DNA from: Candidatus Kerfeldbacteria bacterium
Lineage (GTDB): Bacteria > Patescibacteriota > Patescibacteriia > SBBC01
Assembly (NCBI GenBank): GCA_043799405.1
Contig: JAZDNT010000003.1
Location: 271,461 to 335,460 of the forward strand
Length of the DNA stretch: 64,000 nucleotides
Direction of reading: 5' to 3'
Below are positions 18,905 to 50,295 of this stretch, one piece after another. The notes below the pieces were generated by a model. That model worked only from the letters and a program-made list of their open reading frames with translations. It was not told the origin of the DNA and did not search any database. Position numbers and translations under genes: made by a program. The first letter of the stretch is position 1, and each line of letters opens with the position of its first letter.

Positions 18905-19030
18905 TCCCCAGCGCTCCGGGGTACCCCGCACCGGGACTCACTTCATTCGTCCGGTACGGGGCAGGGCTCCCGCCTACGCCGTCGCTTCGGCGGGCAGGCA
19001 GTGGCCCCGCATGTGGCAGTAGGTGGTAGA
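18905..19030. repeat. GC-rich multi-hairpin intergenic element
   Basis: Stem ccccgcaccggga (18924..18936) pairs with tccggtacgggg (18950..18961). Stem cccgcc (18969..) pairs with ggcggg (..18994). 18977..18999 cgccgtcgcttcggcgggcaggc recurs at 50045..50072 with a 4-nt insertion. Confidence 0.5.
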
Positions 19031-19077
19031 GTGGTCGGCTGTACATTGACATTGATGTTTGGTATACCTAGTAATGT

Positions 19078-19389
19078 ATGCCAGACAAACGCCGGTATGC
19101 GGATCGCGCCGAATATCTCAAACTCGCCGTCGCCGAACGTCGGAAGACGATCAAAGCGACGGTGGTCGAGTATAAGGGTGGCCGCTGTCAAATCTGCGGA
19201 TATCATCGATCAATCGCTGCACTCGAGTTTCATCACCGGGTAGCTGCAACGAAGCGATTCTCGATATCCGGCCAGGGTCTAACGCGTTCATGGCAACGCG
19301 TAAAACAGGAAACGGATAAGTGTTTCCTGGTGTGCGCGAACTGTCACCGCGAACTGCATGCTGGCATGCGGCCCCATAAAAAATCATAA
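19078..19389 (+). CDS. small HNH-endonuclease-family protein
   Basis: 103 aa. The CQICGY..LEFHH...CANCHRELH arrangement (CxxC..HH..CxxCH) is that of the HNH/zinc-finger nuclease fold. Confidence 0.6.
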   Translation: MPDKRRYADRAEYLKLAVAERRKTIKATVVEYKGGRCQICGYHRSIAALEFHHRVAATKRFSISGQGLTRSWQRVKQETDKCFLVCANCHRELHAGMRPHKKS

Positions 19390-19442
19390 GTACTGATTGC
19401 TCCGTAGTACCCGCGTAAAACGTTCTAAAAAACTTTGTTGAT

Positions 19443-19517
19443 TCCGAGGTAGCTCAGTGGTAGAGCAGTCGCCTGTTAAGCGATTGGTCGTGGGTTCGAG
19501 TCCCACCCTCGGAGCCA
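19443..19517 (+). tRNA. tRNA-Asn (GTT), CCA encoded
   Basis: Hand-folded cloverleaf: acceptor TCCGAGG/CCTCGGA, D arm GCTC-AGTGGTA-GAGC, anticodon arm GTCGC-CTGTTAA-GCGAT, T arm GTGGG-TTCGAGT-CCCAC, discriminator G, CCA. 75 nt. Confidence 0.9.
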
Positions 19518-19595
19518 ACAAAGTTTTTTTGTTCTAGAAAAATTATTCGAAATATAAGCACTGATGCCTACGACGCAGGTTCTCCCGCAACCTTG

Positions 19596-19712
19596 ATTTA
19601 ATAATTTATGGAAGGCGGGATCCCGCTCCGTCGCGTAATACGTGGCTCCGCGGGAGAATCCTTGCCCCGAACCACGTAGGGTTCGGGTCTGTCCCCGGGG
19701 CCACATTACGTG
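19596..19712. repeat. GC-rich multi-hairpin intergenic element
   Basis: Palindromes gcgggatcccgc and ccccgggg. Hairpin cccgaacc-acgta-ggttcggg. The flanking gcgtaatacgtggc / gccacattacgtgc are imperfectly complementary. gggatcccgc..tccgtcgc resembles gggctcccgcc..gccgtcgc at 18964..18985. Confidence 0.4.
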
Positions 19713-19726
19713 CGAGAAGCCAAGTA

Positions 19727-19755
19727 ACGACAATCCCCTTCTTTTTTTGTATACT
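19727..19755 (+). promoter_or_regulatory. putative promoter of the ferredoxin-hydrogenase operon
   Basis: ACGACA - 17 nt - TATACT, about 45 nt upstream of ATG 19800. The same TATACT -10 hexamer is seen upstream of the HU gene. The -35 is weak. Confidence 0.3.
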
Positions 19756-19799
19756 GTATCCATCAACCACGTATCGACAACTAACGAAAGGGATTCATT

Positions 19800-20081
19800 A
19801 TGGCCGATGAAAAAAAGAAGGTGAAGAAGGTCGTCGTGAACCGCGACCTCTGCATTGGCGCGGCGAGCTGTATCGTGAATGCGCCGGGTGTTTTTGAGCT
19901 CGACGCCGAGAACAAGGCGGTCATGAAGCTCGACAAGGGCGCGAAGAGCTCCGGTCCTTCGGAACGGAAAGACCTCGAAGACAAAACAATCGACGACGAA
20001 ACGATCATCAATGCAGCGCAGTCCTGCCCGACCAAGGCGATCTTCGTGTACGACGAGGACGGGAAGCAGATCTATCCATGA
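19800..20081 (+). CDS. small single-cluster ferredoxin
   Basis: 93 aa. The DLCIGAASC ... SCPTKAI pattern (CxxxxxC...CP) matches [3Fe-4S]/[4Fe-4S] mono-cluster ferredoxins. ATGA overlap with the next gene. Confidence 0.7.
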   Translation: MADEKKKVKKVVVNRDLCIGAASCIVNAPGVFELDAENKAVMKLDKGAKSSGPSERKDLEDKTIDDETIINAAQSCPTKAIFVYDEDGKQIYP

Positions 20082-21322
20082 TACAGACGAAGTACCTGAT
20101 CGTCGGGGGCGGGGTCGCAGGAACCTCCGCTGCCGAGACCATCCGGCTGAAAGACAAGACGTCAAGCATCCACATCGTCTCGGACGAACCGTACCGGTTC
20201 TACTCGCGCATCATGCTGTCAAAGCCATCGTTCTTCCTCGGGAAGATCCCGTTCGATTCGGTCTTCCTAAAATCGGAGTCGTGGGCAAAGGATAACAGCA
20301 TCAGTACGACGTTCAGGCAGCGGGTTGTCTCTTTGGATACGAAGAAGAAGCTTGTGACGCTGAAGGACGGCAACGAGATCGCCTACGAGAAGCTCCTGCT
20401 GGCGCTCGGCTGCGACGTTTGTCGCTGGACCATCCCCGGAGCAGACAAAAAAGGCGTTCACTACCTCCGTACGCTCGATGACGCGAAGGGCATCATTGCG
20501 GACGTGAAGACAGCGAAGAAAGCGGTCGTCATCGGAGGCGGGTTCATCGGCTTCGAAATGTGCGACATGCTGAAGCTCGCAGGCCTCGATGTAACGCTCA
20601 TCATCCGCGAGAAGTACTTTTGGGAGCCTCTGCTCGATGAGCCGTCCGGACGCATGATCGAAGCGGCACTGAAAAAAGGAGGAGTGAACATCGTTTACGA
20701 AACGCTCGTTGATGAGGTCATTGGCAGAACACGCGTCGAGGGAGTGAAGCTCAATAGCGGAGCGACCATGCCGGTCGACATGATCATCGTCGGGATCGGG
20801 ACGAAGACCACGCTCGACTGGATTAAAAATGCCGGGATCTCCTGCAACCGAGGCGTACTGGCGAACGAATTCTTGCAGACGTCCGCGCCGGACGTATACA
20901 CTGCCGGCGACTCTGCCGAGTACGGGGACAGGATCCTGAACGAATACATCCAGTTCGGCAACTGGGCGAATGCGCAGCTGCAGGGCAAAATAGCAGCAGA
21001 GAACATGATGGGCGGTAACATACCGTTCAAACACGTCTCGTTCTATACTGCACAGGGCCTCGGGACCGCGATCGTGTTTGCCGGCGACATTCGCATACTC
21101 CCCGGAAGAACGGTCGTAACGCGGGGAATGCCCGCATCCGGGGGCTATACCCGCATCATCATTTGGAACGGCGAGGTTGAAGGTGCTACGATGATCAACA
21201 GGACCGTCGACCTGCAGCCGCTTCTGAAAATCATTGAACAGGATGTTAAAATTGAGCCGTACTTGAAACAGCTTGCTGACCCTTCATTCGACCTGAAGTC
21301 GATACCTTTGCAGAAACCATGA
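20078..21322 (+). CDS. FAD-dependent pyridine-nucleotide oxidoreductase (ferredoxin/rubredoxin reductase-like)
   Basis: 414 aa. FAD fold YLIVGGGVAGTSAAE, NAD(P) fold AVVIGGGFIGFEM, and TAGD motif VYTAGDSAE. Overall layout is that of class-I two-dinucleotide-binding-domain flavoproteins. Confidence 0.75.
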   Translation: MIQTKYLIVGGGVAGTSAAETIRLKDKTSSIHIVSDEPYRFYSRIMLSKPSFFLGKIPFDSVFLKSESWAKDNSISTTFRQRVVSLDTKKKLVTLKDGNEIAYEKLLLALGCDVCRWTIPGADKKGVHYLRTLDDAKGIIADVKTAKKAVVIGGGFIGFEMCDMLKLAGLDVTLIIREKYFWEPLLDEPSGRMIEAALKKGGVNIVYETLVDEVIGRTRVEGVKLNSGATMPVDMIIVGIGTKTTLDWIKNAGISCNRGVLANEFLQTSAPDVYTAGDSAEYGDRILNEYIQFGNWANAQLQGKIAAENMMGGNIPFKHVSFYTAQGLGTAIVFAGDIRILPGRTVVTRGMPASGGYTRIIIWNGEVEGATMINRTVDLQPLLKIIEQDVKIEPYLKQLADPSFDLKSIPLQKP

Positions 21323-21400
21323 TCCCGTTAGAAGTCCCCTTAATAAAACATTGAACATGAACGACCATGGCCAACTTGCCAAAAGTTACTTCTAACGGGA
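21323..21400. mobile_element. MITE-like element copy 1 (78 bp) at oxidoreductase-stop / hydrogenase-start junction
   Basis: TIRs tcccgttagaagt (21323..) and acttctaacggga (..21400) are perfect. Flanked by tga (21320..21322) and tga (21401..21403). The interior is homologous to copy 2. Confidence 0.65.
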
Positions 21401-21888
21401 TGACGCCGCCGAAGAAAAAGATACGCATTGGATGGTTCTCGTTCTCGTGCTGCGAGGACAGCACCATCGTGTTCACCGAGCTCATGAACGACCACTGGAA
21501 GGAGTGGAAGGAGCTCTTCGACTTCCGGCACGCGCACGTATTGAAAAGCAAGAATGTCATGGACGACATGGACATCGCGTTCGTTGAGGGAGCTATCGCA
21601 TCGGAAGCGCATGCAAAAAAGCTCAAGACCATCAGGAGCAAGGCGAAAAAGCTCGTCGCGATCGGCTCCTGCGCGGTCATTGGTATGCCGTCTGCACAAC
21701 GGAACAGCTTTACGCCGGAACAAATGCACGAGATACAGTTCCTCATCGACCGGTTCAAGGCGCTGCCAAAAGTATTAAGGGTGTCTGACGTCGTGAAGGT
21801 CGATGCGCAGGTTCCCGGCTGCCCCATGGATCCGAAGCTCTTCCTCGCTGCAGTGGATGGACTTGTCAAGGAATTTCTTAACGCCTGA
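21400..21888 (+). CDS. [NiFe]-hydrogenase small subunit (short, proximal-cluster-only type)
   Basis: MTPPKKKIRIGWFSFSCCEDS..., GSCAVIG and VPGCPMD supply the four Cys of a proximal [4Fe-4S] cluster, as in NuoB/HoxY-like short small subunits. The ORF track start at 21367 is an in-frame ATG inside the inserted element. Confidence 0.75.
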   Translation: MTPPKKKIRIGWFSFSCCEDSTIVFTELMNDHWKEWKELFDFRHAHVLKSKNVMDDMDIAFVEGAIASEAHAKKLKTIRSKAKKLVAIGSCAVIGMPSAQRNSFTPEQMHEIQFLIDRFKALPKVLRVSDVVKVDAQVPGCPMDPKLFLAAVDGLVKEFLNA

Positions 21889-21891
21889 CCT

Positions 21892-23211
21892 ATGCACACG
21901 ATAGACCTCACCATGGACCGCATCTCGAAGATCGAGGGTTCGGCGTCGCTCGACGTCAAGGTCGTGGACGACAAGGTCACGGAATGCCACTTCAAAACGA
22001 CGGAGTACAAACGCTTCTACGTCGAGGCGATGAAGGGAAAGCCTATCATCGCGCTGCCGCAGCTTTTGTCGCGTATCTGCGGCACGTGCTCGAACGCGCA
22101 CCTCTTGTGTAGTATCGCGGCGTGCGAGGATGCGCTCGGCATCGTCCCGAGTATGCAGACCATGCTGCTCCGGTGGCTCACCATGTATGGCCTGAACATT
22201 CGCGACCACGCCCTGCACCTCTACCTCTTTTCGATGCCGGACCTCTACGGCAAGGACGCGTTCCTCGATTTCGACGAGAACGACCCGGAGCAGCACCAGC
22301 AGCTGCACGACGGCTTTGAAATAAAAGCGGCTGGAAATTTCCTTGCGACCCTCGTTGCTGGCCGTAGCGTGCACGCACTCCACCCGACGATCGGCGGATT
22401 TCTACGCTTCCCCGATGCCGAAGGTATCAAAGAAGCGATCACAAAGCTCGAGAAAGCGCGCCCAGCTGTTCTGCGGCTCATCGACACGTTCGCGAAAGCG
22501 CCGTTCCACCTTGACCGGAAAACGCACTATATGGCGCTCGTTCCCGAACGGTTCGGATACCTGACCGGCTCGATCTACAGGACCGATACCGGCGAAACGA
22601 TCCCGCCGCGCGAGTTCCGGCAGCACCTTGAGCATGTCGTTCTCCCCTACTCGCAGGCATCAGCGTACAAGCACAAAGAACATTCGTACATGGTAGGTGC
22701 TCTGGCGCGCCTCAACATCGCGAAAGAAAAGCTCCACGCAAAGACAAAGCAAACGTTAGGAAAACTCCTTGACCGGTTCCCGTCAACGGATATTTTCGAC
22801 AATAACCTCGCGCAGGCTATCGAGGTTCTTCACTGCCTCGATGATGCCGTAGAGATACTTAGGACCAGCTCATTCAAACCCGAGCCGGTCGTGAAAAAGC
22901 CGTACAAAGCCGGTATCGGCATTGGTGTTATCGAAGCGCCGCGCGGAACGCTCTACCATAAGGTCGAGATCGACGACAAGGGCATTGTCAAAGGCGGCGA
23001 GGTCATCGTCCCGACGAACCAGAACCAGATAAACATCGAAGAGGATATCGTTGTCCTCGTCGAAAAGCTGTTACCTAACACAGAAAAAGAAAAGCTCGAA
23101 TTCGAGATCGAAAAGCTCATCCGCGCGTATGATCCGTGCATGAGCTGCGCCGCGCACTTTTTGAAAGTGAATTGGCAATCCCTGAAGGCGAAGCCCCGCA
23201 CCGGAGCGTAG
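21892..23211 (+). CDS. [NiFe]-hydrogenase large subunit (cytosolic group-3-like)
   Basis: 439 aa. N-terminal RICGTCSNAH and C-terminal DPCMSCAAH Ni-Fe ligand motifs. A 17-aa extension follows the His, as expected for endopeptidase processing. Confidence 0.85.
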   Translation: MHTIDLTMDRISKIEGSASLDVKVVDDKVTECHFKTTEYKRFYVEAMKGKPIIALPQLLSRICGTCSNAHLLCSIAACEDALGIVPSMQTMLLRWLTMYGLNIRDHALHLYLFSMPDLYGKDAFLDFDENDPEQHQQLHDGFEIKAAGNFLATLVAGRSVHALHPTIGGFLRFPDAEGIKEAITKLEKARPAVLRLIDTFAKAPFHLDRKTHYMALVPERFGYLTGSIYRTDTGETIPPREFRQHLEHVVLPYSQASAYKHKEHSYMVGALARLNIAKEKLHAKTKQTLGKLLDRFPSTDIFDNNLAQAIEVLHCLDDAVEILRTSSFKPEPVVKKPYKAGIGIGVIEAPRGTLYHKVEIDDKGIVKGGEVIVPTNQNQINIEEDIVVLVEKLLPNTEKEKLEFEIEKLIRAYDPCMSCAAHFLKVNWQSLKAKPRTGA

Positions 23212-23460
23212 CGACCGGTGCGTGGGTGAAGTGGGACAAAGCGTAAGCGCTGGCGAAGCGGCTATCTTTTCATTACCACCTCCCCGTCCTGTCGAATGAC
23301 GGGACAACCCCTCCACAGTAGCGGAGAGGTTCTTAAGGTGCCGAGCTCCATTCCTTGACATTGTTACGGATAGTGCTAACGTCAGCACGTTGCTGTCCCC
23401 ATAAACCAGTCGACCTGAACGCCTATTGACAGATCGGCAGAAACACCACGTCCCACCGCC

Positions 23461-23925
23461 ATGAGAATGGCAAGGAGTTCACTCATGTTTGAGATACCAG
23501 AGGTTCTGTATGAGATTGTGAGGATGTTTGTGCTTTGTGCCGCTGGTATTGATCTCGTTTGGACGATCGTGTATGGTTTTTCGCTCAACTACCATTTCGA
23601 CTGGCGTGAATACTTCCATATTAAGTTTGTGGTCTACGGCGCCAGGACGCTCTTCCTCTTGGTATTTCTAGGGGTCACCCATATTACGTACAACCACCTG
23701 AACGACGAGCCAATACTGTATGGTGCGGCGAAAACGGCTGTGCTTGTGTGCGCTGTTGCGTACATACTGTACGATGTCGTGATGGCGCTCTATCATGGCA
23801 TCCGTGATTTCCGTGGGTATTCGGACCCGGAATGGCCCATATCACTGATGTACCCACACGCCCTTCGTGCGTGTCTACTGGCCGTGATTGCCGGTGCGTA
23901 CTGTGGGCTCATCTGGGTCTCATGA
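23461..23925 (+). CDS. hypothetical 4-TM membrane protein
   Basis: 154-aa ORF with four hydrophobic stretches. No family recognised. Confidence 0.4.
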   Translation: MRMARSSLMFEIPEVLYEIVRMFVLCAAGIDLVWTIVYGFSLNYHFDWREYFHIKFVVYGARTLFLLVFLGVTHITYNHLNDEPILYGAAKTAVLVCAVAYILYDVVMALYHGIRDFRGYSDPEWPISLMYPHALRACLLAVIAGAYCGLIWVS

Positions 23926-24059
23926 TTCTGAACACCGGCCACGTTCTCTTCTTGAAGAGGACCATTCCGGGAGGAAGTTCTGGTATACCTCACCATCGGA
24001 CGCCCTCCGTTCGTCACCCTTTGTTCGTTCTCGTGCACCCTGCGCGAGTACGACCTACC

Positions 24060-24099
24060 GAAGCCCGAGCACTCTCTTGCCCGGGCTTCATGATTTTTT
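24060..24099 (+). terminator. putative intrinsic terminator
   Basis: gaagcccg-agcactctcttgc-cgggcttc followed by atgatttttt. Confidence 0.45.
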
Positions 24100-24136
24100 A
24101 CGCAAAAACCTCTGTTTCGACGAGTTGGTTTGCTTC

Positions 24137-24505
24137 TTAAGAAACCATCCGATCGACGAGGATCATCATTACCGCGCCGACGACCATGAGGTAGCCGAAG
24201 CGAGGCTGGAGTTTCTTGTTTCTGGATAATGCTGCAAACGCGATCAGGACAAGCCATACCGCGACCGCACCAACGGTCATAGGAACGCCGACCCTGAGAA
24301 TCTCGGAAAGGATGTGGCGGAGTCCGGCAGTGAAGAACGGCGGGTAGAACACTACCTCGCCGTGGTAGATGTGCTCCGGAATGAGCCAGGCAACCCCGCC
24401 CCAGAGCAGGGCAAGAAGCCACGCAACGTGAAAGCGCGGTGTGATCTTCTTCTTTGCAGCGGTCACGATGATTGCTGCAGTTGTCGGAGCAATGAAGCAG
24501 GCCAT
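24137..24505 (-). CDS. hypothetical membrane protein
   Basis: 122-aa ORF with 3-4 hydrophobic helices. The overlapping 209-aa Arg-rich ORF in another frame is rejected. Confidence 0.4.
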   Translation of the reverse strand: MACFIAPTTAAIIVTAAKKKITPRFHVAWLLALLWGGVAWLIPEHIYHGEVVFYPPFFTAGLRHILSEILRVGVPMTVGAVAVWLVLIAFAALSRNKKLQPRFGYLMVVGAVMMILVDRMVS

Positions 24506-24543
24506 ACCGAAAGTATAGCCGAAGTTGAGATTTTTTTACACTT

Positions 24544-24813
24544 CTACGCTGAATAGCCTCGGCGCTTCATTTTTGTATTGATGCTCATCTTTTCCCCTGG
24601 TTTTCTTACGGTTGCCACCTTTCTACCGTATGACTGCCCTTCAACACGCGCTATCAATTCTTCACCATTGATATAATCTTTCAATATTCCCTTAGCTTTT
24701 TGATAGCCCCGTTCTCTTTTCTCTGGAGTATCAATATCAGCCAATCGGAAAAATCGCTTTCGCGTATCCTCAAAAGTGTCTCCATCAATTACCTTTTTTA
24801 CTCGAACTCTCAT
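24544..24813 (-). CDS. short thermonuclease (SNase)-like protein
   Basis: VIDGDTFED..FRLADIDTPE....YGRKVATV matches SNase core motifs (DGDT, RL.GID.PE, YGR). At about 89 aa it is shorter than canonical SNase. Start at MRVRVKK; the ORF track start is 24864. Lies in the low-GC island. Confidence 0.45.
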   Translation of the reverse strand: MRVRVKKVIDGDTFEDTRKRFFRLADIDTPEKRERGYQKAKGILKDYINGEELIARVEGQSYGRKVATVRKPGEKMSINTKMKRRGYSA

Positions 24814-24829
24814 TTCTACCACCTCCTTC

Positions 24830-25717
24830 CTATGGATTGATACATGCCTTACGTTCTCGATCACTTGGTCGATCGCCCCAATCGCTCATTGCGACCGCAC
24901 AATATCCACGTAATTCAACGATTGGATGCCCGTTCCTACTATCTATAAGACCAACACTGAACACGCCACTATTACCATTCGTCTGTTCTGGCGCTTCGAC
25001 AATCCATGACGGCATCGGCCCTAATTTCATCGGATTGCCTTTGTCATCAAGAACAAGAAGGTCAACCCTGACTTGTTTTGAAATTTTTCCTTCAGGCGCT
25101 GTTATGGTTAGACAAGATGTAAATTCCTTTCCTATTGGCAGGGAAACATCGAGATGAAACCGATTTAATCTATCAACATGACCGCCTCCGTCATTGGGTT
25201 TAATGTATTCACCGTTTGCATTCACACCAGAAATTTTTTTCAGTGCAATTGTTCGGTCGTCGCCATCACCATGAATAACCTGCAGTTTATTATTCAAGCG
25301 AAACGAAAAATCAATTGAGGACGTCTGTGACAAAACCTTTGTGCAGACAAATACATTTTCTGGCATTGGTTTTGGTGACTGAATGTATCCCTGAGGATCA
25401 CGAATAGACCGTCCCTTATAACGATCTTTCCACTGTCGTCGGTAACCGTCCTCCGATAAAGTCAGAACCCCGTCATGATTCTCTAAATCATTGACTACTT
25501 GATCGCTCTTTACCCATTCCGCGAATGGCGTTCTATCAATCATCATTTCCGGTTGAGACGTTGGGCTCGGTTTCTGTTGCGTTATCCTGGCGATTGCATA
25601 TCCTCCCATTAGGCTGACCAACAATATAACAAAAGTACCCAATGACAATCCCTCCCACGACCAAAAGGTGTAACGGCGTCGGGCTCGAACATCTTGTTTG
25701 TTTTGCTTTATCTGCAT
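24830..25717 (-). CDS. hypothetical membrane-anchored protein
   Basis: 295-aa ORF with one TM helix (LSLGTFVILLVSLMGGYAIA). Low-GC codon usage. No family recognised. Confidence 0.4.
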   Translation of the reverse strand: MQIKQNKQDVRARRRYTFWSWEGLSLGTFVILLVSLMGGYAIARITQQKPSPTSQPEMMIDRTPFAEWVKSDQVVNDLENHDGVLTLSEDGYRRQWKDRYKGRSIRDPQGYIQSPKPMPENVFVCTKVLSQTSSIDFSFRLNNKLQVIHGDGDDRTIALKKISGVNANGEYIKPNDGGGHVDRLNRFHLDVSLPIGKEFTSCLTITAPEGKISKQVRVDLLVLDDKGNPMKLGPMPSWIVEAPEQTNGNSGVFSVGLIDSRNGHPIVELRGYCAVAMSDWGDRPSDRERKACINP

Positions 25718-25831
25718 ATTATCTATCTTCAGCGATGTGCCGATCTACAACGTGTGCTATAATGAGGAAGCCGAGTAATCGGCAGCAAAAAAATCTTCTC
25801 TTCGCGGGGAGGATTTTTTGCGATTCTTACT

Positions 25832-26209
25832 TCACGTTGGTTCATGTTCTTTTAGTTCAATCACGTAAATTGGTCCAATTGTTTCATCTGGTACGATTAC
25901 TGCCGGGTATTTCCCACTATATTTTAAAGGATCAATGTCGTAGAATCGTAAAAATGATCTCGCGGATATTGATGCGCTTCTGTTGGCTTCTGAATAATTC
26001 AATCGATAACAGCTATCGGACTTATCTTTAAGGAATTTAAAGGCAATTGCCTTCTTTTCTTTATCGAAAAAGAGCTCAACATAATTAAAATCAGCAACTC
26101 GGTGTTTTTCACAAAATGCGTGGGGAAGCCCAATAAAATGGGATTTCGTGAGACTTATTCGATCGTCCCATTTATCACCGACCCCTGAAAATCGTTCGAA
26201 GTTAAACAT
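25832..26209 (-). CDS. hypothetical protein
   Basis: 125-aa ORF in the low-GC island, preceded by a good promoter-like sequence. No family recognised. Confidence 0.4.
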   Translation of the reverse strand: MFNFERFSGVGDKWDDRISLTKSHFIGLPHAFCEKHRVADFNYVELFFDKEKKAIAFKFLKDKSDSCYRLNYSEANRSASISARSFLRFYDIDPLKYSGKYPAVIVPDETIGPIYVIELKEHEPT

Positions 26210-26217
26210 ATATCTGG

Positions 26218-26246
26218 AGCATATGCCTTTTCTTTTTACGTGTCAA
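26218..26246 (-). promoter_or_regulatory. putative sigma-70 promoter (near-leaderless) for 25832..26209
   Basis: Minus strand reads TTGACA - 17 nt - TATGCT. The -10 ends 8 nt before ATG 26209. Confidence 0.45.
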
Positions 26247-26317
26247 GCATAAATAGACATATTACATCACTTTTAATGACATATGTCAAAAAATGCTAAA
26301 TTTACCTCACTTCACTC

Positions 26318-27181
26318 CTATCTCATCCCCTCCAGCAGCTTTCTGATGTTCCGGCCGTTTGGCAATTGCTCAATAAGCGGTTTTTCTTTTATTGCTGTAA
26401 ACCCGTCTTCGAGTATCGGCATTTCCTTCCGGTAGAATATACCGATGGGAAGTTTTTCCTCGTTCTGTGCAGCTTTCCACGCTGCATCGCGATCCGCAGA
26501 GTTGTGCTGCAATGTTTCGAGCTTTACAACGCGGTCGTAGAACCACTTGTACGTGTTCACCTTGTTGAACGTGACGCACGGCTGGAAAATATCGACGAGC
26601 GCGAATCCGCGGAACTGGATCGCCTCTTTTATGAGCTGCGTCAGGTGCGTCGTATCACCTGCGAACCCGCGGGAAACGAATCCGCAGCCTGCAGCAAGCG
26701 CAAGCGTCAAGGGATTTACCGGCGTGTCGGTCGAGCCGAAGGGCGTCGACGGCGTCTTTGTCCCTCGCGCTGACGTCGGCGACGTCTGCCCTTTCGTCAG
26801 GCTGTACATCTGGTTATCGTGCACGAGGTACGTCACGTTCGGATTGGCGCGGATCGTGTGGATGAAGTGCGCCATGCCCTCGCCGTAGCCGTCGCCGTCT
26901 CCGCCGACCGCGATCGTCGTTACTCCGCTGTTCGCGAGCGCGATACCTTCTGCGACAGGAAGCGCCCGACCGTGCAGACCGTGGAAACCGTATGCCCTGA
27001 CGAAGTTCGCCTGGTTTCCCGAGCAGCCGATTCCGAACACGACAACGACCTTATGCACTGGAAGTTTCAGTTCGGCGAGCGCTTGCTTTAAGCTCGTCCA
27101 GAGACCGAAGTTTCCGCAGCCAGGGCACCACGTCGGAACGACCGGCGTTTTAAACTCGTCTTGTGGCTGTATCGTGCTCAT
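26318..27181 (-). CDS. 2-oxoacid:ferredoxin oxidoreductase beta subunit (TPP-binding)
   Basis: MSTIQPQDEFKTPVVPTWCPGCGNFG.., GGDGDGYGEG TPP motif. Start ATG 27181 restores the ATGA overlap once the element is removed. The ORF track start at 27199 lies inside the element. Confidence 0.85.
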   Translation of the reverse strand: MSTIQPQDEFKTPVVPTWCPGCGNFGLWTSLKQALAELKLPVHKVVVVFGIGCSGNQANFVRAYGFHGLHGRALPVAEGIALANSGVTTIAVGGDGDGYGEGMAHFIHTIRANPNVTYLVHDNQMYSLTKGQTSPTSARGTKTPSTPFGSTDTPVNPLTLALAAGCGFVSRGFAGDTTHLTQLIKEAIQFRGFALVDIFQPCVTFNKVNTYKWFYDRVVKLETLQHNSADRDAAWKAAQNEEKLPIGIFYRKEMPILEDGFTAIKEKPLIEQLPNGRNIRKLLEGMR

Positions 27182-27259
27182 CCCGTTAGAAGTCCTCATT
27201 AAATAAGATCAAATATGAACAATTGCTATCAGTATTTTTATGGGTGACTTCTAACGGGA
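27181..27259. mobile_element. MITE-like element copy 2 (79 bp) at OFOR alpha-stop / beta-start junction
   Basis: TIRs tcccgttagaagt (27181..) and acttctaacggga (..27259) are perfect. Flanked by tca (27178..27180) and tca (27260..27262), which read TGA on the coding strand. Confidence 0.65.
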
Positions 27260-29020
27260 TCATTTCTTTCTTGCAATCAAAGCAAGTTCTTTAGCAAGCT
27301 CGTCAGGGTCGAACGGCCTTCCGTCATACCGCCGTATCGAATGGTCAGGCGTGAAACCCGTGTACTCGCGGATGAAGCCGGCGAACTTTCCGCTTCGATT
27401 ACTCTCTACAATGACGGTCTTTTTCGCTTTCTTCATCGCTGCCATGAACACTTTAACGGGAAGAGGAGCTACCATCGGGACAACGACCGCGTTCGCGGTC
27501 TTTCCGTAGTTCTTTTTTAACGTTGCAAGCGCCATTTCGACCGGTCCGGCAGACGAACCCCACGTCACGACCGTGAGCGAAGCTTTTTTTGCTCCAATGA
27601 TTCGGGGTGGCATCGTCTTTTTCCGGAGCGTTGCTACTTTCCGTGCCCGACGTTCCATCTGCGCTATGCGGTGGTCCTTGTCCTCGTTCGAAAATCCGTA
27701 CTCGTCGTGCTCGTCCGAGTTCGCAAGGAACAGTCCTTTCGGGGTTCCCGGGATGGCGCGCGGACAGATCCCGTCAGTGACCCTTTCGCGGTATCGCAAG
27801 TAAGTTCCTTCCCCTTTCCATACCTTACCGCGCTTGATAGGAAGCGTTTTTAGGTCCTTCACTGCGACGCTGCAACGCCCTTCAGCAAGGTACTTGTCCG
27901 TCAGCACGATGACCGGCGTCTGGTAGACGTCCGCAAGGTTGAATGCGTGCTGGATAAGCGTAAAGCACTCGGCGTGCGAGGTCGGCGCCAGCACGATGCG
28001 CGGAAAGTCGCCCTGCGAAGCGTGCAAAACCTGCCGAAGGTCGCCCTGCTCGGTCCACGTCGGCATGCCAGTCGACGGTCCCGGACGCTGCGCATCAATG
28101 ATGACGATACCGACCTCGGTCATGGCGGCAAGACCGACCGCCTCGGTCATGAGCGAAAATCCCCCGCCGGACGTTGCTGTCATAGCGCGGACGCCCGCGT
28201 ACGCAGCGCCGATCGCGTTGTTGACCGCTGCGATCTCGTCTTCGGAGTGCCGTACGACCATCCCAAAACCTGGTCCATGCTGGGCTAAAAAGTGCAGGAT
28301 GGACGTTGCCGGGGTCATCGGGTATGCCGAGAAGAACTGGCAGCCGGCCTGGATGGCGCCGAGCGCTAGAGCATCGTTTCCCGTAAGCAGCACCCGCGTA
28401 TCCTTCGTTTTCGCGGGTGTAACCTGCCAGGGACAGCTCTTTCTCTGTGCGCTCGTTGCTGCCTTGTAGCCGGAAGCAAGCACGTCCGCGTTGAGCTTAA
28501 TAACCTCATCCCCTTTTTTACCGAACGTCTCGTCGATCACTTCATTCAGGTTGTCGAGTGGAATATCTAAAAGCGCGCAACTTGCACCGAGTGCCACGGT
28601 GTTACGCATCAGGACCTCTCCGCCGGATTTCTTTGCAAGGTCTTCTAACGGCAGACCGAACAGCAGCACATCGCGGCGCGAAACCTTCGATGGATCGAAC
28701 TTGGCAAACGTTGTATCCGTCGTATCATAGATGATCACGCCGTTCGGGCTCATCTCGGATAGGTGCAGGTCGATAGTCTCGCGGTTCAGCGCAACGAGGA
28801 TGCTGACCGATGTCCTATGGCTCGTGAGCGGCTCGGCTGAAGCCGTGACCTGGTCGGTATTGTGCCCGCCGCGTATGAGCGACGGGTACTCCGGGTAGCT
28901 GAAAACGTTCAGGCCCGCCCGCATGCAGATGCGCGCGAACATTTCTCCGGTCGACATGATGCCGAAACCGGCTTCGCCGCCTATTTTCCACGTGATGTCG
29001 TTCGTTCGTGCTGGCATCAT
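27260..29020 (-). CDS. 2-oxoacid:ferredoxin oxidoreductase alpha subunit (fused gamma-alpha type)
   Basis: 586 aa. N-terminal gamma-like WKIGGEAGFGIMSTGEMFA, then the pyrimidine-binding/transketolase-like alpha domain (YPMTPAT..., GFSLMTEA). Confidence 0.85.
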   Translation of the reverse strand: MMPARTNDITWKIGGEAGFGIMSTGEMFARICMRAGLNVFSYPEYPSLIRGGHNTDQVTASAEPLTSHRTSVSILVALNRETIDLHLSEMSPNGVIIYDTTDTTFAKFDPSKVSRRDVLLFGLPLEDLAKKSGGEVLMRNTVALGASCALLDIPLDNLNEVIDETFGKKGDEVIKLNADVLASGYKAATSAQRKSCPWQVTPAKTKDTRVLLTGNDALALGAIQAGCQFFSAYPMTPATSILHFLAQHGPGFGMVVRHSEDEIAAVNNAIGAAYAGVRAMTATSGGGFSLMTEAVGLAAMTEVGIVIIDAQRPGPSTGMPTWTEQGDLRQVLHASQGDFPRIVLAPTSHAECFTLIQHAFNLADVYQTPVIVLTDKYLAEGRCSVAVKDLKTLPIKRGKVWKGEGTYLRYRERVTDGICPRAIPGTPKGLFLANSDEHDEYGFSNEDKDHRIAQMERRARKVATLRKKTMPPRIIGAKKASLTVVTWGSSAGPVEMALATLKKNYGKTANAVVVPMVAPLPVKVFMAAMKKAKKTVIVESNRSGKFAGFIREYTGFTPDHSIRRYDGRPFDPDELAKELALIARKK

Positions 29021-29034
29021 TAATCAGCGTATCA

Positions 29035-29110
29035 TCCCGTTAGAAACTGATTTGGTAAATACATATGCATGATATATTGTTGTGTGAACAAAAGCTAGTT
29101 TCTAACGGGA
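29035..29110. mobile_element. MITE-like element copy 3 (76 bp) directly after the acetate kinase stop
   Basis: TIRs tcccgttagaaact (29035..) and agtttctaacggga (..29110) are perfect. Flanked by tca (29032..29034) and tca (29111..29113). Confidence 0.65.
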
Positions 29111-30235
29111 TCATGCAGCAACCGCGTCAACAATGGCCTGCTCCTCGTCCGTCGGTACCATGAATGTACGGATGCCCCGTGCTGCCGGAAGGTCACGCAG
29201 GATCATCTGCCGGATGATACGTTTTCCGCTGATCGGTCCGGTAAAGACGATCGCCTGTACAGTACTACTGAGCCCAAGGTATGCGGCAAGGTAGCGCCGG
29301 ATACGGTACGTGTAGACACCAAGCGCGAGTCTCGCCCGTGCTCTGACGGCTGCCGTGTATTTCCTGCGAGGCCACCCTGCTACAGGTTTTCCTATTGCTC
29401 CGAGAATGTCGCGCATGTCTTTGAGACCGCAGAGTCCAAAAAGGCCGGACTCATGCTCGAGAAGATATTTTACACGTTCAGCAGACCACCCGAGTTTGCT
29501 TTGTATATACAGCGGGATCGCAGGATCAATGTCGCCAGAACGCGTGAGCATTGTTAATCCCTCGAGCGGCGTAAAACCCATTGTCGTATCGACCGGTACA
29601 CCGTTCTGCCACAGTGTCATACTCGCTCCTGCGCCGAGGTGAATTGTTACAGCAGAAAATGACCGCAACGGCTTCCGAAGCTTCTTAGCTCCCTGACGGA
29701 AAACCCACGCGTGCGATGTGCCGTGAAATCCGTACCTTTCTATTGCAAGGAGCGTTGCTAAACGCCTCGGGATCGCATACGTTCGTGCGTGTTCAGGAAG
29801 CGAGCGGTATATCGCCGTATCGAACACGCCCCATTGTAAAGCCTTTGGCCACACCCGTTTCGCAAAAGAAACGCCTAAAAGGTTCGCGGGCTGATGCAGC
29901 GGCGCAAGATCAGCAAGCGTTTTTAAGTACTGGATAACAGACGGCGTCAGCCTCATGGGTTTTGAGAACCGCTTTCCGCCATGCACGATGCGGTGTGCTA
30001 TGATGTCAGGTTTAATCCCATAATCCGCAGCAACTCGCCGTACTTCGACGAGAGCTGATCTCAGATCTGGGACGTTCGCAACCCGAGTACGACGGCGGCC
30101 TTCTGAAACGACGTGTATGCGCGCCTGACGACCGAAGTGCTCAACAAACCCCCGCAGTACGATACGGCGGTTCTGGGCTACGGCGAACTTTACCGAGGAA
30201 GAACCAGCATTGAGAACGACGACATTCCGGGTCAT
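29111..30235 (-). CDS. ackA: acetate kinase
   Basis: 374 aa. VLNAGSSSVKF, HRIVHGG, ERYGFHGTSH and GDIDP motifs of the acetate/propionate kinase family. Confidence 0.85.
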   Translation of the reverse strand: MTRNVVVLNAGSSSVKFAVAQNRRIVLRGFVEHFGRQARIHVVSEGRRRTRVANVPDLRSALVEVRRVAADYGIKPDIIAHRIVHGGKRFSKPMRLTPSVIQYLKTLADLAPLHQPANLLGVSFAKRVWPKALQWGVFDTAIYRSLPEHARTYAIPRRLATLLAIERYGFHGTSHAWVFRQGAKKLRKPLRSFSAVTIHLGAGASMTLWQNGVPVDTTMGFTPLEGLTMLTRSGDIDPAIPLYIQSKLGWSAERVKYLLEHESGLFGLCGLKDMRDILGAIGKPVAGWPRRKYTAAVRARARLALGVYTYRIRRYLAAYLGLSSTVQAIVFTGPISGKRIIRQMILRDLPAARGIRTFMVPTDEEQAIVDAVAA

Positions 30236-30236
30236 A

Positions 30237-30800
30237 TCATTTCACCACATCAGCGGTCATGCCGGGAACGACGCCACAGGCGTTTCCTTCGTCAGTGTCG
30301 AGGTGGAGCCGTGTTGTAAAATCTCTGTCAACACGGGCATAGACGTTGTTGAGGAGCGCACCTCGCGGTCCGCCGACACGCACCGAGATAACCTGACGGT
30401 CAGAAAGCCCGAGCGTTTTCGCGTCATCGGGGCTTAAGTGAAGGTGGCGCTGTTGGATGATTGCGGCGGGTTTTGTGATTTCGCCAACTGGCCCTTCGAT
30501 TGTTATTGTCGCTGCGTTGTCGAGAAGACCCGAATCGCTTAATGGTGGCGCAATACCTAAGTGCCGCGCTTCTGTTAATGAAAGCTCGACTTGCGTGTAC
30601 TGCCTGAACGGTCCGACGACGCCGACGTTTGCGTACTCGCCCTTTGGTCCCTTAAGTACGACCCGCTCCTTTGCGACGAACTGTTTAGGGAGCGATATCG
30701 GATGGTCCAGCGTCATCTCCGCCGTACCGAAAAGCTTGACCCAATCGTCTTTGGTGATATGTATGTGGCGTGCGGATAGTTCAATTGGTATGGATATCAT
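30237..30800 (-). CDS. pduL: phosphate acyltransferase PduL type
   Basis: 187 aa with two PduL repeats (IELSARHIHI.. and QQRHLHLSPDDA..). Sits immediately upstream of ackA (1-nt gap). Confidence 0.75.
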   Translation of the reverse strand: MISIPIELSARHIHITKDDWVKLFGTAEMTLDHPISLPKQFVAKERVVLKGPKGEYANVGVVGPFRQYTQVELSLTEARHLGIAPPLSDSGLLDNAATITIEGPVGEITKPAAIIQQRHLHLSPDDAKTLGLSDRQVISVRVGGPRGALLNNVYARVDRDFTTRLHLDTDEGNACGVVPGMTADVVK

Positions 30801-31222
30801 GGTCGCTGATGTATGGTTTTCGAACGTTCTTTCATAATACCGCTTCCGCCCGACAGACGCAAAAGTATAGAAACGATGTTACGATGTGCTACTATCTCAT
30901 TAATCGTTGGCGGAACGCCGATGATGGTCACTTTTTTTAGCCTACCGAGCTTCTGTAATAGCCGCAGCTGCGTCAGCGCGTCAAAGTCATGCACCGAAAC
31001 TCTCGGGGTTCTTTCAAATGTAGCGAGGTCGCTAAAGACCTGTACAGTATCAATGCCAACGACAGCGTCGATCACGACGAGGCGTTCGGGCGTTTCCCAT
31101 TCTTCGTTCGGATCTTTTACCTCGAACGCTATATCCGGGCATGATTTCCGAAGGCCAGCAAGGAGCCGAATGGGCAGCGCGTCGCCGGGAAGGTCGGGGT
31201 TTCCGAAAACGTAGACTGTCAT
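30797..31222 (-). CDS. hydrogenase maturation endopeptidase (HycI/HoxW family)
   Basis: MTVYVFGNPDLPGDALP.., VVIDAV, SVHDF correspond to the GNxxxxD / D / H metal-binding positions of hydrogenase C-terminal proteases. The ORF track start is 31234. Confidence 0.7.
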   Translation of the reverse strand: MTVYVFGNPDLPGDALPIRLLAGLRKSCPDIAFEVKDPNEEWETPERLVVIDAVVGIDTVQVFSDLATFERTPRVSVHDFDALTQLRLLQKLGRLKKVTIIGVPPTINEIVAHRNIVSILLRLSGGSGIMKERSKTIHQRP

Positions 31223-50023: not shown

Positions 50024-50295
50024 TGGCGGAGAGGGGGAGATTTCCGCCGTCGCTTCGCTTTGGCGGGCAGGCGAACCTGCCCAGAGCGGAGGGTGCGAGA
50101 TTCGAACTCGCGAATCCTTTCGGATTGCACGCTTTCCAAGCGTGTGCACTAGACCGCTATGCGAACCCTCCGCTCTGGGCAATAAATAATGTGCTTTCTG
50201 CGGCGAAGCCGCATCCGGCTTTGCCGGACAAGCGTGCGCCATAGACCACCCACCGCCCTGCGGGGTCCCGCTCTGCGGCGATCGGCCATCTCTCC
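50024..50295 (-). pseudogene. disrupted second tRNA-Ser-like gene surrounding the intact tRNA-Ser
   Basis: Minus strand: GGAGAGATGGCCGA (50295..50282, class-II tRNA 5' end). GGTCTATGGCGCACGCTTG (50247..50229) matches the intact gene's D-loop-to-anticodon-loop at 16/19. GAAAGC (50198..50193) follows a 30-nt double-hairpin insertion. GGCGGAAATCTCCCCCTCTCCGCCA (50048..50024) is T-arm/acceptor/CCA-like and complements GGAGAGA at 6/7. Confidence 0.45.
50087..50171 (-). tRNA. tRNA-Ser (GGA), class II, no encoded CCA
   Basis: Hand fold: GGAGGGT|TC|GCAT-AGCGGTCTA-GTGC|A|CACGC-TTGGAAA-GCGTG|CAATCCGAAAGGATTC (long variable arm)|GCGAG-TTCGAAT-CTCGC|ACCCTCC|G. 85 nt. Confidence 0.85.

Follow-up and report, generated by a model that had tools for sequence, protein, structure and literature searches.

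A palindromic insertion element at the stop/start junctions of operon genes in a Kerfeldbacteria genome, and its wider family

The stretch of DNA analyzed here (the window) comprises 64,000 nucleotides (nt) of a Candidatus Kerfeldbacteria genome (assembly GCA_043799405.1, contig JAZDNT010000003.1, positions 271,461 to 335,460 of the forward strand) and contains three elements of 76-79 bp, each bounded by terminal inverted repeats that match perfectly over 13-14 bp (TCCCGTTAGAAnn / nnTTCTAACGGGA). In all three copies the first base directly follows a TGA stop codon and the last base is the A of an ATG. Judged by its sequence features, the element is a mobile insertion resembling MITEs (miniature transposable elements that carry inverted repeats) and Rickettsia palindromic elements (RPEs). 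It is a member of a large and apparently undescribed family located on start codons, or in frame within genes, of the ultra-small bacteria of the Candidate Phyla Radiation (CPR). We consider it probable that a palindromic insert of this kind enters an ATGA overlap, that the stop and start codons are rebuilt around it, and that ribosomes arriving from the upstream gene rescue the downstream one. A preliminary description of the sequence had interpreted the same structure as a built-in hairpin for translational coupling or occlusion; the arms of that hairpin, however, are the inverted repeats of the mobile element, and close orthologues have a plain ATGA overlap in its place.

The window copies and their orthologous sites

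The copy we call c2 (79 bp, 27181..27259, minus strand) separates the gene for the OFOR alpha subunit (27260..29020, minus strand; POR and POR_N domains) from that for the OFOR beta subunit (26318..27181, minus strand; TPP_enzyme_C and PFO_beta_C domains). As the preliminary description had it, one arm begins directly after the OFOR-alpha TGA and the other ends in the A of the OFOR-beta ATG (27181-27179, minus strand), and the two form a perfect helix closed by an AT-rich loop of about 50 nt. More exactly, the 14-nt 5' arm (TCCCGTTAGAAGTC, 27259-27246) and the 14-nt 3' arm (GACTTCTAACGGGA, 27194-27181) make a perfect 14-bp stem around a 51-nt loop of 25% G+C, all on the minus strand. The OFOR-alpha stop (TGA, 27260..27262) is the left copy of a duplicated target, the right copy of which lies at 27180-27178. 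Together with base 27263 this stop reads ATGA, the ancestral stop/start overlap still present, as empty orthologous sites also read ATGA; a second ATGA (27178..27181) forms the right border. The NCBI OFOR-beta protein (P0001, 287 aa, 100% identical) begins at the ATG that ends c2, and the N-termini of OFOR-beta orthologues align there.

Copy c1 (78 bp, 21323..21400, plus strand) lies between a Pyr_redox_2 gene and the gene for the NiFe-hydrogenase small subunit (21400..21888, plus strand; Oxidored_q6 domain). Its 13-bp arms occupy 21323-21335 and 21388-21400; the stop TGA (21320-21322) borders it on the left, and the ATG (21400-21402) with the duplicated TGA (21401-21403) on the right. The geometry described for c2 extends to this junction in the layout of stop, arms and ATG, but not in the loop, which at 40% G+C is not notably AT-rich. 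Copy c3 (76 bp, 29035..29110, minus strand), at the acetate kinase/OFOR-alpha junction, has arms at 29110-29097 and 29048-29035 and follows the acetate kinase stop (TGA, 29113-29111). Here too the stop-codon geometry recurs, but no gene start is locked: the terminal ATG (29035) opens only a three-codon mini-open reading frame (ORF), ATG ATA CGC TGA (29035-29024), and the true OFOR-alpha start at 29020 is 15 nt further on.

The loops of c1, c2 and c3 are unrelated, and only the termini are common to them. The copies are single, with inverted repeats and no tandem direct units. Allowing up to two mismatches, the 13-mer arm occurs seven times in the window against 0.95 expected, a number that none of 100 shuffles reached. 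The OFOR-alpha gene is bracketed by c3 and c2 with the same TCA/TGA flanks (27181-29110) in a composite-transposon-like arrangement, and the arm variants of these two copies differ at positions 12-13 (GT against AC).

Each window copy is flanked by a direct repeat of TGA (or ATGA). The sequence fits either a duplication of TGA around an element with T...A ends or a duplication of ATGA around an element one base shorter. Orthologous loci, designated here by L numbers, reveal the sites before and after insertion. In L121, with an OFOR-beta 82% identical to that of the window, the alpha and beta genes meet in an ATGA overlap (...ACAATGACTACT...) without the element, and so do the reductase and hydrogenase small subunit genes (...CACCATGATCCC..., ATGA). 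In L124 (76% identical) the alpha/beta junction is likewise an empty ATGA, and the acetate kinase/alpha junction holds an orthologous element that is 89% identical to c3 over the aligned junction. In L123 (93% identical) the c2 site is occupied by a different, nested version of the element. From the empty and filled sites of these relatives it follows that c3 is old, and that c1 and c2 entered their ATGA overlaps more recently.

At the level of sequence, this comparison establishes insertion into an ATGA overlap with regeneration of both stop and start. Target duplication and the T...A ends of the element together rebuild the stop on the left and the start on the right, and both genes remain intact. 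The same two properties account for the stop/start geometry, which gives no sign of a selected regulatory device; indeed, the ATGA overlap of the element-free orthologues already provides for translational coupling without a hairpin. The element is short, has no transposase-coding capacity, carries terminal inverted repeats, is flanked by a target duplication and is variably present or absent at orthologous sites, all of which are features of MITEs.

Two minor observations concern these orthologous loci. The nested version in L123 (85-227) is a 135-nt compound reading ATGA-TCCCGT...TTCTAA-[TCCCGTTAGAAAT...ATTTCTAACGGGA]-CTAACGGGA-TGA, which suggests a second insertion into the first element or a replacement of it; similar arm-in-arm nesting occurs in L013, L115 and L032. 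The element-free hydrogenase small subunit orthologue in L121 (5140-5152, minus strand) starts with ATGATCCCGCC (M-I-P-P), and 9 nt (ATGATCCCG) are common to this start and to the window junction with the beginning of the element. This match may be coincidence or insertion-site microhomology.

A family on start codons and within genes

We scanned genomes, one per species, for the pattern TCCCGTTAGAA-N40-70-TTCTAACGGGA. At least 120 genome loci match; by chance, a database of this size should yield about one. The family counts that follow refer to 129 elements including those of the window (126 from other genomes) among the matches listed. The consensus ends are TCCCGTTAGAA(nn)...(nn)TTCTAACGGGA, and the elements measure 62-92 bp. 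A scan of metagenomes for the exact window geometry (ATGA-element-TGA) yielded 40 more loci, bringing those with the same termini to more than 160 in total; viral contigs gave two matches only, and phage carriage is negligible. Among the matches listed, most loci are CPR/Patescibacteria according to their record titles, and there are some long contigs that bear labels such as Planctomycetota, Omnitrophota and WOR-3. Spread across phyla beyond the CPR is probable, with the proviso that the labels of metagenome-assembled genomes can err. Literature searches by sequence and by topic returned general background on MITEs and RPEs and no description of the element, and a 2024 review of prokaryotic MITEs has nothing on start codons (PMC10969869).

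Within the 129 elements the flanking direct repeat most often measures 4 bp (90 elements). Repeats of 3, 2 or 0 bp account for 37; of these, 10 have 3 bp, among them all three window copies (TGA), and 12 have 2 bp. The 4-bp repeats are TNNA-like, with TGAA (43), TGGA (16), TGAG (10) and TCAA (7) the named members among others. The variation in length could reflect decay of the non-coding left copy.

Start codons are where most of the family is located. An ATG is formed with the flank in 100 of the 126 elements from other genomes, against 11% expected, and 87 of these 100 element-end ATGs lead into an ORF 60 codons or more in length, a property that 24.6% of ATGs in those loci have overall (p = 2e-39). 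The genes that follow are diverse housekeeping genes, encoding among others aminoacyl-tRNA synthetases, DnaG, MreB, pyruvate kinase and a hibernation factor, and 117 Pfam families are represented in 82 proteins. Of the 89 start-linked elements, 39 also adjoin the end of an upstream ORF, 80 codons or longer. For 17 of those 39 (17/89 start-linked elements, other genomes), as for the window copies, the duplicated TGA serves as the stop. The stop/hairpin/start geometry is also found at a gene-gene junction in 13 of 34 metagenomic elements.

A group of mostly Saccharibacteria copies (L008:6900, L012:686, L026:2508, L093:757, L059:1983) has the left flank ...(A/T)A(A/T)A(C)TTG; in this group only TG is repeated and TAAAAT-like boxes lie ahead of the element. 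These copies may be promoter-proximal leaders in which the element constitutes the whole 5' untranslated region.

There remain 40 elements without a qualifying start-codon ORF, and many of these lie in frame inside long ORFs; 24 of the 40 belong to the length class that keeps the frame. In-frame genic copies mostly have G+C-rich, structured interiors and always read xPVR[S/N]...[T/I]SNGx. They interrupt Pfam domains by 22-26 residues in PepA, GatB (twice), UvrC, RsmH and PurD, and further copies are found in a TPR protein and a glycosyltransferase. The in-frame genic copies are L038:1986-2059, L025:1149-1216, L120:3929-3996, L029:2235-2305, L003:2402-2472, L040:1152-1219, L114:3818-3888 and L018:2535-2605. 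In-frame translation within a gene is a property of these family members and not of the window copies.

Hairpin, reading frames and competing explanations

The expectation that the arms would pair at the three junctions, and that the helix would be stable, was borne out by predicted RNA folds. The arms pair in both the minimum free energy and the centroid structures of all three copies, with predicted free energies of -29.5, -27.2 and -31.7 kcal/mol and z-scores of -4.7, -3.7 and -2.5 relative to shuffled sequences. Across the 129 elements the stem is exactly 13 bp, and pairing is random from position 14 on. Arm positions 1-11 were fixed by the search pattern. Positions 12 and 13 are variable yet complementary in 129/129 and 117/129 elements, respectively. 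Among imperfect copies, compensated changes occur at position 11 in eight cases and at position 1 in three, and one of the latter turns the start codon into GTG. In L094 (4897-4962) the terminal pair is C-G in place of T-A and the downstream 518-codon ORF opens with GTG, from which it follows that the element's final base serves as the first of the start codon. The predicted helix of c2 also buries a Shine-Dalgarno (SD)-like GAGGA; c1 and c3 have no SD-like motif. Rfam returned no relevant match at E <= 1 for window positions 19000-31000 and none at gathering score for 16 loci. A loop-less mini-palindrome consisting of the arms alone, CCCCGTTAGAAGTC-G-GACTTCTAACGGGG, is present at L111:3689-3717.

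The ends of the element also bear on translation through it. The 3' end (...UUCUAACGGGAUGA), in which the arm is joined to the TGA target, deals with all three frames: one fuses with the gene (TSNGM), the second stops at a UAA 4 nt before the AUG and the third stops at the UGA that overlaps the AUG. The fusing frame explains the N-terminal extensions pointed out in the preliminary description. In-frame ATGs at 27199 and 21367 do yield MRTSNG-M and MANLPKVTSNG-M, and these extensions are element-encoded, as the inverted repeat reads TSNGM. At the left border the duplicated ancestral start codon is kept, and in the window it overlaps the upstream stop (AUGA). In c2 the kept ATG begins a short ORF (MIPLEVTHKNTDSNCSYLILFNEDF and a stop; 27186..27263, minus strand) that spans the whole hairpin and ends at the TAA of the 3' arm (27188-27186), 4 nt before the OFOR-beta ATG. 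In c3 the ATG overlapping the acetate kinase stop begins a similar ORF (MIPLETSFCSHNNISCICIYQISF and a stop; 29040..29114, minus strand), which spans the hairpin and stops at the 3'-arm TAA, 4 nt before the element-end ATG. The kept ATG of c1 opens a shorter one (MIPLEVPLIKH and a stop; 21319..21354, plus strand).

We refer to the frame that starts from the kept start codon as the relay frame. No stop interrupts it within the loop in 39 of 71 elements, where loop shuffles give 17.3 +/- 3.4, and none of 2000 shuffles reached the observed value. With one representative per loop cluster the figures are 28 of 55 and 14.4 +/- 3.1 (loops were clustered at 70-80% identity, as 60% merged everything). 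The other two frames are open in 14/63 and 13/63 elements. An independent sample that has the exact ATGA geometry of the window keeps this frame open in 14 of 34 elements, against 8.8 +/- 2.4 (p = 0.03). We regard the relay-frame signal as real, although the controls bear it out incompletely and it may in part reflect a general coding-compatible frame of the family.

The interior of the element has a polarity as well. An inner CGGG able to pair with the 5' arm is found in 37 of 89 elements, against 4/89 for its mirror image, and SD-like motifs near the 3' arm in 19/89 against 3 for the mirror. The inner CGGG is rarer at gene-gene junctions (7/39) than elsewhere (21/50; p = 0.02). These features are compatible, we infer, with selection against any structure that would trap the arm bearing the AUG where no upstream ribosome arrives. 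In start-codon copies an inner (A/G)CGGGA often lies 15-35 nt from the 5' end, as in L119:2156-2223, L102:7680-7743, L101:6053-6115 and L012:686-753; it could pair with the 5' arm in place of the AUG-bearing 3' arm, and is absent from the window copies. This motif could be an alternative-pairing switch or the remnant of a mini-element.

We suggest the following course of events. A non-autonomous palindromic element of 76-79 bp entered the 4-nt ATGA overlap of two translationally coupled genes, and TGA was duplicated on insertion (or ATGA, should one assign the terminal A to the target). In the mRNA, the predicted helix loops out the insert of about 50 nt and buries the AUG beside the upstream stop. 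A ribosome halting at the UGA would already have entered and melted arm 1, and the kept ancestral AUG could then start the short relay ORF, which would run through the hairpin to the UAA in arm 2. Re-initiation would follow at the regenerated AUG, 4 nt beyond that UAA; in other copies the relay ORF would end at the UGA overlapping the AUG, or run in frame into the gene. In other words, opening of the hairpin by upstream translation is a mechanically plausible form of coupling, indirectly supported by the ORF that leads from the kept ATG through the hairpin, and the element would be a selfish insert almost transparent to translation rather than a device evolved by the operon.

A broader reading is possible, but we hold it with more doubt than confidence. 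It takes the elements to be an undescribed, widespread and start-codon-seeking selfish family, whose ends have evolved to re-create a stop and a start and whose interior keeps a relay ORF. As part of that reading, the TAA of the arm and the TGA of the target would make every frame end at, or fuse with, the regenerated AUG. A looped-out, read-through insert of this type would be nearly cost-free, even on the start codons of DnaG, MreB and aminoacyl-tRNA synthetases in genomes of about 1 Mb. In its stronger form some copies would have been co-opted as switchable initiation hairpins, with the 5' arm pairing either with the inner CGGGA or with the AUG-bearing 3' arm.

Several observations weigh against the insertion-and-relay mechanism. 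Flanking repeats of 4, 3, 2 or 0 bp are unusual for a single transposase, and a survey of about 1.2 Mb of loci turned up neither a transposase nor an autonomous copy that carries these termini; when an autonomous parent was sought as paired termini spaced 150-5000 bp, with duplications and arm variants that match, the search returned neighbouring small elements only. The relay ORF of c1 ends inside the loop, and the in-frame ATG at 21367, which reads into the gene, comes after its stop. The mirror frame of the opposite strand is open in 23/63 elements, and in the ATGA-geometry sample the 'PVR' frame is as open as the relay frame. Finally, mismatches on the sense strand comprise four G.U and four A.C pairs, and from this equality arm complementarity may be selected in DNA rather than in RNA. 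Such a DNA-level reason could be a hairpin in single-stranded or cruciform DNA, or a need for identical ends on the part of a mobilizing enzyme, the mRNA hairpin being a by-product. Besides the lack of a G.U excess, this explanation draws on the 11 invariant nt, which exceed what a hairpin needs, on the compensated changes at both ends and on the occurrence of the same arms in the subfamily that is not on start codons. It leaves the interior polarity and the open relay frame unexplained, and we think it somewhat unlikely; it is nevertheless compatible with the mechanism proposed above and does not exclude it. We find it unlikely that the element is simply a selfish insert next to which downstream genes are initiated independently, through breathing of the helix or SD-like sequences in the loop, with start codons being among the few sites where an insertion does no damage. 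The target is itself ATG-like (A|TGAA, A|TGGA), coding density is high enough that purifying selection alone would enrich gene borders, some copies (the 19/89 mentioned above) have SD-like motifs near the 3' arm, and the ATGA class has uniform length classes and a relay frame no better than the PVR frame. However, a stable helix over the AUG strongly inhibits de novo initiation in bacteria, and one of 13-15 bp and -27 to -32 kcal/mol should do so here. Independent initiation is also at odds with a relay frame that is open at roughly double the shuffle frequency, with an interior polarity that fits selection against locking of the 3' arm and with the lack of an SD-like motif in c1 and c3.

Three further explanations were weighed. 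That the hairpin is a built-in device enforcing coupling or occlusion between subunit genes is improbable, and given the empty sites this reading is largely refuted: close orthologues do without the element and are already coupled by the ATGA overlap, the same termini with target duplications lie beside unrelated genes at more than 160 loci in many lineages, copies also occur in frame inside proteins, and c3 covers no gene start. What such a device would explain is the burial of the AUG (and, in c2, of the SD-like GAGGA) in a stable predicted helix right after a stop, and the retention of c3 since the split from the 76%-identical relative. It is very improbable that the helix serves as an RNase III-type processing site that makes mRNA stability on its upstream side separate from that on its downstream side. 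In favour are the perfect duplex of 13-14 bp in a polycistronic mRNA and a precedent in the Correia elements of Neisseria (PMC10969869), but the helix is short for the enzyme, cleavage would strip the start-codon context from genes that need co-expression, and the position of the family on the start codons of essential genes speaks against destructive cleavage. A strong stem-loop between genes could also be taken for a transcription terminator or attenuator, or for an internal promoter. We give this almost no credence: no T-tract follows the stem, the loop is far above the size found in intrinsic terminators, and a consensus scan of the three elements found neither a promoter-like nor a terminator-like site.

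Relation to known systems

In structure-unmasking coupling, as between the coat and replicase genes of phage MS2 or in E. coli atpHA, translation of the upstream gene opens a downstream start that is otherwise paired with sequence which the upstream ribosome has to cross or come near; such coupling is a mode of action and does not define a family of elements. The window element resembles these cases in that its start is predicted to be hidden in a helix with bases next to the upstream stop. It differs in that the pairing partner came with a mobile element and in that a relay ORF from the duplicated start may melt the helix. Mycobacterial interspersed repetitive units (MIRUs) are reportedly intercistronic and contain short ORFs that overlap or abut the flanking stop and start, an arrangement said to have been proposed to preserve translational coupling. 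The ORFs of c2 and c3 are similar, starting at an ATG that overlaps the upstream TGA and ending 4 nt before the element-end ATG, whereas that of c1 is not. MIRUs are tandem direct repeats with units of 46-101 bp, however, and have neither terminal inverted repeats nor a hairpin that buries the start. With REP sequences and REPINs (repetitive extragenic palindromes and their hairpin-forming arrangements) the family has in common short hairpin-forming repeats and compensatory changes in the arms. REPINs lack target duplications and are extragenic, lineage-specific and linked to RAYTs (REP-associated tyrosine transposases); the window family has duplications and copies on start codons or in genes.

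Among MITEs, the closest parallel is Chunjie of Geobacter uraniireducens, which is summarized as a MITE of 178-235 bp found inside operons (Chen et al. 2008, via PMC10969869). Like Chunjie, the element is small and non-coding, has terminal inverted repeats, a target duplication and many copies, and lies between operon genes without destroying the operon. Unlike it, the window family is shorter (62-92 bp), sits with single-nucleotide precision on start codons or ATGA overlaps, has non-conserved loops and extends across many CPR lineages and probably other phyla. RPEs are summarized as palindromic, in-frame, translated elements of reduced genomes (Ogata et al. 2000, 2002, via PMC10969869). Family copies in PepA, GatB, UvrC, RsmH and PurD are likewise in frame and translated, a likeness drawn from the description of RPEs. 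RPEs measure about 100-150 bp and belong to another taxon, whereas the window family is shorter, sits mostly on start codons and has clear target duplications. The Correia elements, or NEMIS, of Neisseria are MITEs, bounded by terminal inverted repeats, whose transcription is joined to that of adjacent genes and whose RNA hairpin affects the fate of the mRNA (PMC10969869). Correia elements have 26-bp repeats, a TA duplication, an IHF site, promoter parts and RNase III cleavage, none of which is observed for the window family, and are not centered on start codons; the arms of the window family, in contrast, are 13-14 bp long and of unrelated sequence, and its duplication is TGA or TNNA. Overall, the element is built like a MITE and would work like unmasking coupling and MIRU-type ORFs, and its relatives behave like RPEs; it lacks defining features of Correia elements, REPINs and MIRUs.

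Other candidates were set aside. The core motifs of attC sites come in the opposite order, and hairpin ends of the IS200/IS605 type make no target duplication. Group I and bulge-helix-bulge introns were rejected, as the stop-free in-frame genic copies and the bias in length class indicate that the insert is translated, not spliced. Ribosome-hopping elements were also considered and rejected.

These findings have implications for how mobile DNA persists in very small genomes. A mobile element can colonize an extremely compact genome by landing on the first nucleotide of a gene, or on a stop/start overlap, and rebuilding the signals there. If the relay-and-hairpin mechanism is true, it constitutes a natural portable module that keeps translational coupling across an 80-nt insert. 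The in-frame genic copies represent the RPE phenomenon in another part of the bacterial tree, and with them the family offers a second and much larger system, beside RPEs themselves, for studying how palindromes move and why proteins tolerate them. For genome annotation, the element causes spurious N-terminal extensions (MRTSNG-, MANLPKVTSNG-, MNPVRN...) in CPR genomes and adds inserts of 22-26 aa to conserved CPR proteins. The preliminary claim of a coupling hairpin was partly right, and the family behind the hairpin is the more interesting result.

Two further observations concern structured RNAs. A Parcubacteria locus that carries two of the elements also contains a group I intron (L017:3154-3454; Rfam RF00028, 57.8 bits), which is unrelated to them. 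In the window itself, the flanks of both tRNA genes extend the acceptor stem by pairing of leader with trailer. For tRNA-Asn (19443-19517, plus strand) the stem is lengthened by about 16 bp, with an inverted repeat of 23 nt that is 91% complementary (window 19427-19529), and for tRNA-Ser (50086-50171, minus strand) by about 8 bp, with an inverted repeat of 20 nt that is 95% complementary (window 50078-50181).

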